Assembly (NCBI GenBank): GCA_905478415.1
Contig: CAJQIG010000002.1
Span: 250,699-314,698, forward strand
DNA length: 64,000 nt
Source of the DNA: an uncultured Patescibacteria group bacterium
Lineage (GTDB): Bacteria > Patescibacteriota > Microgenomatia > UBA1400 > PJMF01
Direction of reading: 5' to 3'
Within the stretch, counting starts at the first letter, position 1. The number at the start of each line of letters is the position of its first letter. Made by a program: the position numbers. Below, in pieces: positions 39,001-42,000 of the stretch.

Positions 39001-42000
39001 AATTGGCTGAAGTTGCTACAGACAAAATGTTTTCACTTCGCAAACAATACAATTTTGGACCAGTCTTTACTCATTCGCTTTACCTTGTTAATTTGGCCTC
39101 ACCAAAACCCGAGCTGATCCAAAAGTCGTTACGGGTTCTCAAATACGATATGGCCTTCGATAGTAAGATTGACGGTTCGGGTATCGTGGTGCACTTAGGA
39201 AGTCATTTGGGTGCCGGCTGGGAGGCCGTGCGAGAGCAGGTTGCAACCAACATTCAGGAAATTTTGGATGATAGCCCCGAAGATGCAACTTTCCTCATCG
39301 AAAACAGTGCTGGTCAAAAGGGCAAGCTCTGTAGTGAGCTGACTGAGATCAAATGGCTGTTTGAAACCATTTCTTCCCCCAAGTTGGGTTGGTGCTTTGA
39401 CACCTGTCATGCGCATGCTGCTGGGCTGAGTTTACAAACTGTTGGTGATGAAATAAGTGAGCTTGGACTGTTGAAAGACCTCAGGTGTGTGCACGTTAAC
39501 GATAGTCGAGATGACTTTGCTAGTGGGCGAGACCGTCACGACAACTTGGGGCAGGGCAACATTGCTGAAGCAGATTTTAAGCATTTTTTGAACTTACCAG
39601 AAATGGCTGAAATTCCTTTGATTTTGGAAGTGCCGGGGCTGGAGGGTAAGGGGCCGGACGCAGCTAACATTGAAATTTTGAAGTCTTATGTGGAGTAGGG
39701 TGGTCCTACAAATTTTGGTTTGGAATGTAAAAAGCCCGGCTTGGAAGCCGGGCTTTAGGTTATTTTTCTACGATGTTATTTAGATCCGAGGGTCAGTAAA
39801 TGTTGCTGACGGACGGCCCTCTCGGAGGACTGTCAGTAGCAATGACATTTTGTTTTTGCGTTCAGCATAGGCAATTAATTCTCTAATCTTGTCATTTTTT
39901 GTTTCGCCTGCAATATCTTCATAAGGAATACTTGCGTCAAAACAGAGAGTTCTCAACTCACCCAGGTTGTAGGTGGTTGAGATTTCATTGCGAAGGCTTG
40001 TCCGCTTGGCCGTGGTGCTTAATTTTGCAGTTGGATCTGCCATCATTGAAGTTTCGTTGTTGTCGGGTTCTGTTGTTTCAGCTACGGCGAAAAAAGGGCG
40101 ATTCTCACCCTCCAACTTTGGCATTTCTTCGTCTGATACGCCCACAACATAAATGGCACGGTACGTTCTTTGCAGATGCCAACGAACATCTTCGATCGTG
40201 ACTTCTTGTTCACGGCCGCGGATGCTGTCGGAGATACGGATGGCGATTTCCTGAGTCAACTCTTTTGTTTTTTGGGCGTAAGCTAAGAATAATTGAACCT
40301 CTTCTGGCAGAACCAGTTCAGTCCAGTCATCTGTATACAACCGAGCACCCATCCAACTCAGACCAGTTCCTTCTTGCAGGAATCCATCATATGGCATGAG
40401 CACATCGCGTTTGGCGATGTTTCGATCCATATCCTCAATCATGCAAGTCAGATACATTTCGTTTGGCCCAGCGACAAAAATTTCGCCATCAAATTTTGCC
40501 CGGTCGATAGCAAGAGCATTGATCAATTTTGCTGTGCCAACTTCAGACGGTTTACCTTTCAACTTGGCAACTGGCCCACGGCCAGTACCTTGTCGAACAG
40601 CTACCATAAAGCGGTAGCCAATCCGACGTTTGTCTGTCGGGTCTGCGAAGAAGTCCTTAACCAGTTTTTCAATGGCTAAGGGTGACTGCAATTTGATTTT
40701 TGCCCAGGTGATTTCTGTAACTTCCCCGTCAAATAAATTGTCGAGGTCGTCTCCGTCAGTTTTTTCTGGAGCGGGTTTGGTTGGGGGAGCCGTTGGGGCT
40801 TCCTCTGGACCAAACGTCGCAGCTAATTTTTTGGCGAATCGCATTGGAATTTGCATTGCGCGGAATTCATCCTGCGTAATGGGTTCTTCTTCCAAATGCG
40901 CAACAGCTGTATAACCTTCTGCGGTCAAAGCTTCGATTACGGTTTCTGGAAATTTTACATCACATTTTTTATTCAGGTCAGTTGTAAAAGACATTTGTGT
41001 TCTCCTAAGAGTAGGTCCCCACTTTCTTCATACGAACAAAGTGAGAAAAAATATTTTTAAATTTTTTTTTGAAATCAAACAATCGATTGTCTCCAACCTT
41101 CCATCCTGGGTTAGATTTTGGTGTGAGTAAGTTCTTGGTGTTAACCTCCGATAACTTTCTTTACTCACTGATGGCGCAAAAGACTCGAGACTGTGGAAAA
41201 ACAGCCTAAAATACTTTGCGCCACCACCGAGAAAGAAAAGGGGAGGTGTCTATATAACATCGTAGAGAGTGTAGATAGGTGCGACGCTGAGTACCGGATT
41301 GGCACTAAGGTCACACGCATCTTGCTCTCTACAAATTACTTGTTAAAGAACTTATCGAAGTGGTGTACTAACAGCCACAACGACAAACATATCTTCCAAA
41401 GAAGAGTACTGCTAATTATATCCTATATAAGTTTAAAAGTCAAGTATAGAGATGGGCTTTTAAACACCTGAAGGTATCGAAGGCTGTTCAAATTTGTTAC
41501 TATAAATACATGGTTGAAAAGTCAGCACAGAGTGCCATAGCACCACCAGATCTAGATCACCCAGAAAGCGAGAGGGTAAAGGAGAACGAGCGAATGGCAT
41601 CACCAGAAATGCAGCAGCTTTTTTTCTCGTTGCAGTCAGAAGTTCAAAAAGAGAAAGTTGGATTACATTCAGGGGCTGCTTATGAGCATGATTCAGAAGT
41701 GGTGATTCGACACTATCCCCTGTATAAGCAGCAAATTCTTGACTATATTCGGGGAGAATCTGACAAACTGGTGACAATTTTACCAGTAGTAATGGACGAA
41801 GAGTTCAAAATTGTGTATTTTGATCACTTGAGGAAGTTCTTTTCTGATTCTTTTAATGATACTTTAATGGCAAGTGGTCAGTTATTGTTTGTTCTTGAGG
41901 ATCTACACAAGTATGCTCCAGAAGAGACGGAGTTGTTTTTATATGATATTTTCCTTTCCTTTGGTGATCATTTTACGTTAAAAGAAACATCGCAGAGATT

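Follow-up and report, generated by a model that had tools for sequence, protein, structure and literature searches.

A fast-evolving, modular EAD7 protein and the structured RNA upstream of its gene in a small clade of Pacebacteria

The EAD7 gene and the domain layout of its product

The DNA analysed here is a 64,000-nucleotide stretch (the window) of contig CAJQIG010000002.1 from an uncultured Patescibacteria group bacterium. It carries a minus-strand gene whose product ends in EAD7, one of the effector-associated domains (EADs). The gene order around it is kept among relatives and reads SHMT, Vut_1 (in the window only), MT21, nfo, the EAD7 gene, a giant Fic gene that is variably present, folD, an Rce1-like gene (absent from locus L007), rpsB and tsf. 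The EAD7 gene and the parts of its product are as follows.

39780-40994, minus strand: EAD7 gene, open reading frame (ORF) of 404 aa (stop included), with SAM-like domain, Pro linker, orphan domain, short linker and EAD7
40809-40994, minus strand: residues 1-62, SAM / (HhH)2-like five-helix domain
40743-40808, minus strand: residues 63-84, Pro-rich disordered linker (direct sequence reading; predicted local distance difference test score, pLDDT, <50)
40086-40742, minus strand: residues 85-303, central orphan domain of alpha/beta type, up to and including the conserved P-x-L-EGENRPFF junction (alignments; pLDDT mostly 75-94)
39996-40085, minus strand: residues 304-333, short linker at the site of the relatives' swappable ~110-aa cassette, which is lost here
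39810-39995, minus strand: residues 334-395, all-helical EAD7 domain (Pfam PF19960)

The gene begins with an ATG and has a Shine-Dalgarno (SD) sequence, AGGAGA (41001-41006), 7 nt upstream. Its 404-aa product recurs identically on at least 18 public contigs of up to 658 kb, so the short form of the protein is real. A first-pass annotation, made from the sequence by eye, had placed the ORF and a C-terminal peptide (residues 338-395) as we find them and had called that C-terminus EAD-like. The profile search it proposed identified a complete EAD7 domain: residues 334-395 match PF19960 over profile positions 1-62 of 62 with 64.8 bits (gathering score 32; E=6.2e-18), and the orthologues score 56-79 bits against the same profile. 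Two AlphaFold2 (AF2) models were used, the first built from 4 sequences (mean pLDDT 51, its centre too poor to use) and the second from 7 sequences (pLDDT 73, usable). In the first, the EAD7 region is a small all-alpha C-terminal domain with helices at 344-353, 366-379 and 383-393 (pLDDT 66-82); the Foldseek match of this low-confidence model to the CARD of Apaf-1 and caspase-9 (TM score 0.53, probability 0.72, E=1.7) is not significant.

The Pro-rich linker and the central region of unassigned fold, both described in the first-pass annotation, were borne out. The centre is an orphan domain with no match in Pfam, PADLOC, NCBIfam, PHROG or BFVD; fold prediction, suggested earlier as a check, gave an alpha/beta model of usable confidence for which no fold match was found. 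Family alignments show G126, F129, K144, D197, G209, L219 and Y220 to be invariant within it, and the protein as a whole drew nothing from PADLOC or NCBIfam. The N-terminal 60 residues, overlooked in the first-pass annotation, form a five-helix SAM-like bundle with fold matches to SAM domains, that of SARM1 among them. The combination of SAM-like domain, orphan domain, cassette and EAD7 is a new architecture, one of the options that had been raised.

EADs are homotypic couplers of effectors to NTPase cores in conflict systems (Kaur, Burroughs, Iyer and Aravind 2020, PMC7159879; Kaur, Iyer, Burroughs and Aravind 2021, PMC8195603). A metagenome pattern scan for the EAD7 core motif returned 80 loci. 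Those with a GC content like that of the candidate phyla radiation (CPR) were only the orthologues (L022, L040), one of them on a 1.19-Mb contig that gave a single match. The others showed canonical fusions to NB-ARC, TIR and FGE-sulfatase, as well as a pentapeptide-TIR-EAD7 protein. Since these loci match published coupler architectures (PMC7159879, PMC8195603), the domain in the window is placed in the EAD7 family. Two low-GC loci, L077 (43-2315) and L080, encode an FGE-sulfatase-like protein, an EAD7-TIR protein, a second short EAD7 ORF and a pentapeptide-repeat protein, and the EAD7 of their TIR protein is the closest match to the one in the window (50% over 48 residues). As a source of a partner they were rejected, being a canonical FGS, EAD7-TIR and pentapeptide cluster of another organism.

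Module exchange and rapid divergence among relatives

Relatives of about 500 aa carry a module of ~110 aa between the P-x-L-EGENRPFF motif and EAD7, where the window protein has a 30-residue linker instead. The cassette has no Pfam match. Identities by region disagree from one pair of proteins to the next: between the window protein and P0002 the centre is 79% identical, the N-terminal domain 36% and EAD7 39%; between P0002 and P0003 the centre is 36% and EAD7 73%; between P0003 and P0004 the centre is 91% and the cassette 24%; and between P0007 and P0008 the centre is 21% and the module 43%. At the DNA level, the genes of L001 and L007 are 80-98% identical over nt 1-900 and 46-54% over nt 960-1320, after which identity recovers. 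This drop (L001 10960-11320 versus L007 10960-11320) sets in exactly at the junction motif. The incongruent region identities, together with the drop in DNA identity, thus show that modules have been exchanged by recombination, and the EAD7 protein is a mosaic. One cassette type is common to P0002, P0007 and P0008 though their centres are only 21-44% identical, and the cassettes of P0003 and P0004, two otherwise 91%-identical proteins, are unrelated.

In comparisons of the same genomes, identity is 64-90% for nfo, rpsB, tsf, SHMT and folD, against 37-40% for the EAD7 protein and 35% for Fic. Both the EAD7 gene and Fic evolve fast within a conserved backbone, a pattern usual for genes under conflict.

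The family is extremely rare. When 1.84 billion cluster representatives were searched exhaustively by HMMER, an EAD7-free profile matched 6 clusters. Among 5.8 billion proteins, a word-indexed search recovered 4 family members, and of 185,579 GTDB species representatives a pattern scan picked out a single genome, that of Candidatus Pacebacteria bacterium CG_4_9_14_0_2_um_filter_40_15 (Minisyncoccota, CPR). A profile search of the 5.8-billion-protein set added no family members, and likewise none for Fic, among the matches listed. The proteins flanking the locus in the window are 64-90% identical to those of that Pacebacteria lineage, and the window organism is therefore a close relative of it.

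A C-terminal EAD7 is present in 5 of the 6 relatives and missing from the most distant, P0009. This protein (L018 3030-4400), encoded on a contig of higher GC (~56%), matches the central domain distantly (E=7e-5) and has neither EAD7 nor the RNA element described below; the orphan domain therefore exists outside the clade with a different C-terminus. The gene context of P0009 is uninformative. A phage origin of the EAD7 protein was considered and rejected, as it had no PHROG hit, no IMG/VR relative and no BFVD fold match. Many short Logan contigs of 1.6-1.9 kb (L009-L011, L013, L015-L017) hold only the EAD7 gene, starting in the 3' part of the RNA element and ending after the stop codon, which suggests that the assembly graph branches at the flanks, where co-occurring strains differ.

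A conserved structured RNA lies upstream of the EAD7 gene

The first-pass annotation had described a 515-bp intergenic region between the EAD7 gene and the giant Fic gene. The head-to-head arrangement stands; the region is not empty and holds an RNA element that probably reads into the EAD7 gene.

41415-41443, minus strand: sigma-70-type promoter TTGACT-17-TATAAT facing the EAD7 gene (11/12 matches; 12/12 in L007; kept in four full-length relatives)
41060-41412, minus strand: conserved structured RNA element (alignment, RNAalifold, pair counts, minimum free energy)
about 41251-41350, minus strand: long hairpin I (RNAalifold)
about 41143-41249, minus strand: long hairpin II, base-pairing a CCUCC-like stretch with an internal GGAGG (RNAalifold)
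41077-41092, minus strand: palindromic hairpin, besides further small hairpins (RNAalifold)
41017-41045, minus strand: pre-SD hairpin, just upstream of AGGAGA (position and pairing kept in six lineages, sequences differ)

Upstream regions aligned across the four lineages with full context share long identical blocks. RNAalifold predicted 77 pairs in this alignment of only four full-length sequences from closely related genomes. With the structure and the pair counts drawn from the same alignment, 94% of pair cells were standard, compared with 35-50% in slid controls, and 15 pairs were changed on both sides, compared with 1-6; 0 of 500 shuffles were as good as the observed alignment. The helix with the most two-sided changes is the one that pairs the CCUCC-like stretch with the internal GGAGG. 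The window copy has a minimum free energy of -127.8 kcal/mol (z -7.9), and the strand of the EAD7 gene is favoured by its many G-U pairs and by the alifold energy (-75.6 versus -55.6 kcal/mol).

Searches with nhmmer found the element exactly once, directly upstream of every orthologue, with or without Fic, and as partial copies at the contig ends of P0007 and P0008. None was found in 76 unrelated EAD7 loci or upstream of P0009. The element is thus structured and linked to the EAD7 gene. Furthermore, the pre-SD hairpin is kept with differing sequences, which argues for transcription read-through to the ORF. No Rfam family matched the element; the only hit, SpF22 at chance level (E=0.98), lies at 41017-41067, downstream of the element and over the pre-SD hairpin, and a scan of the window at Rfam gathering thresholds returned only 2 tRNAs and glmS. 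The element is a candidate for a new class of cis-regulatory or non-coding RNA.

Other identities for this region were tried and rejected. Repeats like those of type III toxin-antitoxin (TA) systems are absent: the region has inverted repeats only, and no tandem repeats save a 10-nt A/T-rich run. A small conserved ORF was also dismissed, because the 92-aa ORF on the plus strand matches relatives over 31-38 residues only, matches that stem from DNA conservation, and on the sense strand inspection of the aligned sequences found no conserved start codon or reading frame. A phage origin of the element was likewise discarded: no phage record matched, and three 17-mer matches in viral contigs did not extend and are due to chance.

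The giant Fic neighbour is variably present

The first-pass annotation had called the EAD7 gene the divergently transcribed partner of the giant Fic gene and had suggested their co-occurrence in relatives as a check.

41510-46138, plus strand: giant Fic-domain protein, 1542 aa, variably present (Pfam Fic)
44609-44644, plus strand: Fic motif HPLEDRNGRISR (motif comparison)

Only one domain is recognised in this protein: residues 995-1052 match Fic with 28.3 bits, against a gathering score of 24. Its motif, written H-P-L-E-D-R-N-G-R-x-x-R, keeps the His, the Asn and both Arg of HxFx(D/E)GNGRxxR and departs from it in F to L and in the first G to R. The L007 orthologue, which aligns from end to end at 35% identity, has QPLEDRNGRLSR, with Gln in place of the catalytic His (residue ~998). 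In the aligned core, window IHPLEDRNGRISR versus L007 TQPLEDRNGRLSR, the catalytic His is thus lost in the only orthologue, and for this reason Fic activity may be degenerate or non-canonical. PADLOC models of the Fic type match weakly, and the best NCBIfam match, the type III effector XopAC/AvrAC, is far below cutoff. A cryptic EAD7 in the Fic protein was sought and rejected, with none found by Pfam and an hhalign probability of 0.14%. On a 16.6-kb ENA contig of the same organism (P0019, P0020) Fic is called as two ORFs of 136 aa and 1364 aa, with the break near residues 164-178; the split is either a frameshift or nonsense variant, and hence decay, or a sequencing error.

In the window lineage, as in that of P0004 (L007, L008), Fic and the EAD7 gene stand head-to-head. 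Fic is missing, and folD adjoins the EAD7 gene directly, in P0002 (L012), which is the closest relative, and throughout the lineage of P0003 (L001-L005, L014, L040), so that two of the four lineages with readable context keep the EAD7 gene without it; tblastn found no Fic remnant in the gaps of L001 and L012. The expected co-occurrence therefore holds in only part of the clade. The Fic gene is co-directional with folD and lies 71 nt upstream of it (29 nt in L007). Some link between the two genes is favoured by their place in the same fast-evolving spot and by their equal divergence (35-37%) between the two lineages that have both, which suggests that they have long been co-resident. As judged from these comparisons, the partnership would at best be a loose association within one variable hotspot.

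Other features of the window

39731-39756, plus strand: GC-rich hairpin between the convergent nfo and EAD7 genes (nfo terminator call with T-run)

No terminator was called on the minus strand at 39731-39756; from the symmetry of its stem, the hairpin may serve the EAD7 gene as well. A glmS ribozyme (Rfam RF00234, 56.5 bits) at 10554-10756 (plus strand) lies upstream of a 604-aa ORF (10834-12648), which by its position should be glmS and hence ordinary. Two ORFs of 408 and 374 aa, at 34119-35345 and 50604-51728 (both plus strand), are conserved and syntenic with no Pfam match, and have counterparts of similar size at the same positions in L001 and L007. EF-Ts (48831-49289, plus strand) is only 152 aa long, with Pfam covering the first 76 of 204 profile positions, and has the same length in all relatives.

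Discussion

Our preferred explanation, held tentatively and short of calling it probable, is that the EAD7 protein is a fast-evolving, modular, recombining conflict-system protein of a small Pacebacteria clade that assembles through EAD7 and is preceded by a translation-gating leader, and that Fic is not its EAD-coupled partner. EAD7, and possibly the SAM-like domain too, would drive homotypic assembly with other copies of the protein or with an EAD7 partner encoded elsewhere, and in the assembled state the orphan central domain would be concentrated or activated; in relatives, the cassette would set specificity. Transcription probably runs from the near-consensus promoter ~415 nt upstream through the long structured leader, which probably gates translation. 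There the CCUCC-like stretch pairs with the internal GGAGG decoy and could alternatively mask the real SD sequence. Giant Fic would occupy the same hotspot as a second gene that evolves fast and is dispensable. The comparisons show the EAD7 membership, the SAM-like fold, the orphan centre, the mosaicism, the patchy distribution of Fic, and the RNA structure with its linkage to the gene; a role in conflict, the way the protein assembles and control by the leader are what we infer.

Several observations weigh against this explanation. The protein belongs to the EAD7 family, and the pairing that defines EADs at the level of the system is unobserved locally. In agreement with the first-pass annotation, phmmer and a hidden Markov model (HMM) of 80 diverse EAD7 domains found no second EAD7 in the 64-kb window, the same HMM found none within 10 kb on either side in L001, L007, L012, L014 and L040, and no STAND, MoxR, vWA or GTPase core occurs among the 20 neighbouring or largest window ORFs scanned, which are housekeeping (gyrA, gyrB, dnaB, hisS, SHMT and others) or of unknown function. 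No catalytic fold can be recognised in the central domain fused to EAD7, and the model of this domain is built from 7 sequences. Surrounded by housekeeping genes, the locus seems to be inherited vertically, which sets it apart from typical mobile defence islands. As for the RNA, its covariation statistics are suggestive rather than conclusive, and its adjacency to the gene is weak evidence of a functional link because all genomes compared are close relatives. A separate small RNA would be allowed by a weak hairpin, A/U-rich and palindromic with T-runs, that lies 80 nt ahead of the ATG, and L007 has a second promoter-like site downstream of this hairpin.

The proposal that the EAD7 protein is the adaptor or regulator of a divergent giant Fic effector in a two-gene system does not survive comparative analysis, and we regard it as quite unlikely. 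Fic proteins are known toxins, the two genes stand head-to-head in the window and P0004 lineages, the PADLOC matches point weakly the same way, and the full-length identity of Fic (35%) is close to that of the EAD7-protein centre (37%), as expected of co-residence since the lineages split. However, Fic contains no EAD7, L012 and L001/L014/L040 retain the EAD7 gene and its leader with neither Fic nor a remnant, Fic goes with folD in direction and spacing, and the catalytic His has become Gln in L007. The missing local partner would also fit a protein directed at a host. CPR bacteria live attached to other bacteria, as we assume for this organism, and viral CARD-only, PYD-only and DED proteins act as decoys of immunity. 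By analogy, the EAD7 protein would be delivered to the host cell to decoy or hijack the EAD7-bearing STAND/TIR immunity there, with an AvrAC-like Fic co-delivered and the EAD7 partner in another genome. Consistent with this are the absence of a local cognate EAD7 or NTPase, the swapping of EAD7 and N-terminal domain between close relatives (possibly retargeting), the origin of the nearest EAD7 domains in other phyla (P0005 of Anaerolineaceae and metagenome loci of high GC are examples), the XopAC/AvrAC match of Fic, though far below cutoff, and the unusually fast evolution of both genes. No signal peptide or secretion motif was seen in the EAD7 protein, however, and we consider delivery into a host to be as improbable as the partnership with Fic.

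Two further explanations lie outside conflict. SAM and HhH folds can bind nucleic-acid hairpins, and the ~350-nt RNA could be a stable non-coding RNA bound by the (HhH)2/SAM-like domain, the two forming a particle with a lineage-specific cellular function. The strong promoter of the RNA, the hairpin and T-runs before the ORF, and invariant stem sequences that suggest sequence-specific recognition would agree with such a particle, which we nevertheless find very doubtful: the protein is too fast-evolving and modular for a subunit of a housekeeping ribonucleoprotein, EAD7 is otherwise confined to conflict-type architectures, and the pre-SD hairpin argues for read-through. Alternatively, this may be an ordinary lineage-specific protein in which EAD7 is a generic helical oligomerisation module, with the upstream conservation reflecting promoters and operators of two divergent units. 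Its stably syntenic housekeeping neighbourhood and the lack of a partner are in line with this. Yet cassette swapping, module loss and a 2-fold lower identity than that of the neighbours are untypical of ordinary proteins, and abundant G-U pairing, together with long helices changed on both sides, points to RNA and not to DNA operators, so that we judge this explanation unlikely.

The preferred explanation, a conflict-system protein assembling through EAD7, can be set against known systems. EAD7-tagged conflict systems include the vWA-MoxR-VMAP ternary, STAND-FGS and TRADD-N systems (PMC7159879; PMC8195603). EAD-coupled systems have been reported mainly from multicellular bacteria, in an analysis that left out CPR. 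The locus resembles EAD7 conflict systems in its true EAD7 at a protein terminus beyond a linker and in its rapid diversification with lineage-specific EAD variants. It differs in having no cognate EAD7 or NTPase core nearby, in the fusion to SAM-like and orphan domains outside the described effectors, and in its reduced-genome CPR host, its syntenic housekeeping neighbourhood and the position of the gene behind a structured RNA. As in animal MyD88, ASC and SARM1, small helical modules of a kind that may interact homotypically flank a putative functional domain; there is no sequence relationship to these proteins, and the fold match of EAD7 is not significant. The conserved N-terminal part, replaceable cassette and sharp junction motif (here P-x-L-EGENRPFF) recall CdiA (VENN) and Rhs (PxxxxDPxGL), except that the cassette is internal here and is followed by a conserved EAD7. 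Of other polymorphic-toxin features, neither an immunity gene downstream, where nfo is convergent, nor a secretion or delivery domain (Pfam) was found.

The Fic neighbour is like AvrAC/XopAC and SoFic in scoring above the Pfam cutoff for Fic and in its core motif, and unlike them in its length of 1542 aa with no other recognised domain, its deviating motif and an orthologue that lacks the catalytic His. In its succession of promoter, structured RNA, hairpin with T-run and ORF, the region upstream of the EAD7 gene is like riboswitch and T-box leaders and type III TA RNAs, and the internal SD/anti-SD helix, as in riboswitch and T-box leaders, suggests translational gating. It differs in having no Rfam family and none of the tandem repeats of ToxI-type antitoxins.

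The EAD7 domain itself is known; what is new is the SAM-like/orphan/cassette/EAD7 architecture, the lone EAD in a CPR genome, the shuffling of modules and the dedicated structured leader. What defines EADs is that they occur in pairs within NTPase-centred, apoptosis-like immune systems, and here a genuine EAD7 stands alone in a CPR genome of the ~1-Mb class. If it self-assembles or engages the EAD7 of another organism, this would widen the known uses of prokaryotic Death-like adaptors and give a foothold on the conflict biology of CPR bacteria, which is almost unexplored. A bolder version, which we think unlikely, is a new RNA-plus-protein conflict module of CPR bacteria, its conserved unit being the RNA with the EAD7 protein and not Fic with the EAD7 protein, in which an RNA of ~350-415 nt gates or partners a SAM-like/orphan/cassette/EAD7 protein that polymerises in Death-fold style without an NTPase, or in which EAD7 targets the EAD7 immunity of a bacterial host. 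Such a module would be the first EAD-type apoptosis-like adaptor to work outside NTPase-centred systems, and would do so in an ultra-small symbiont.

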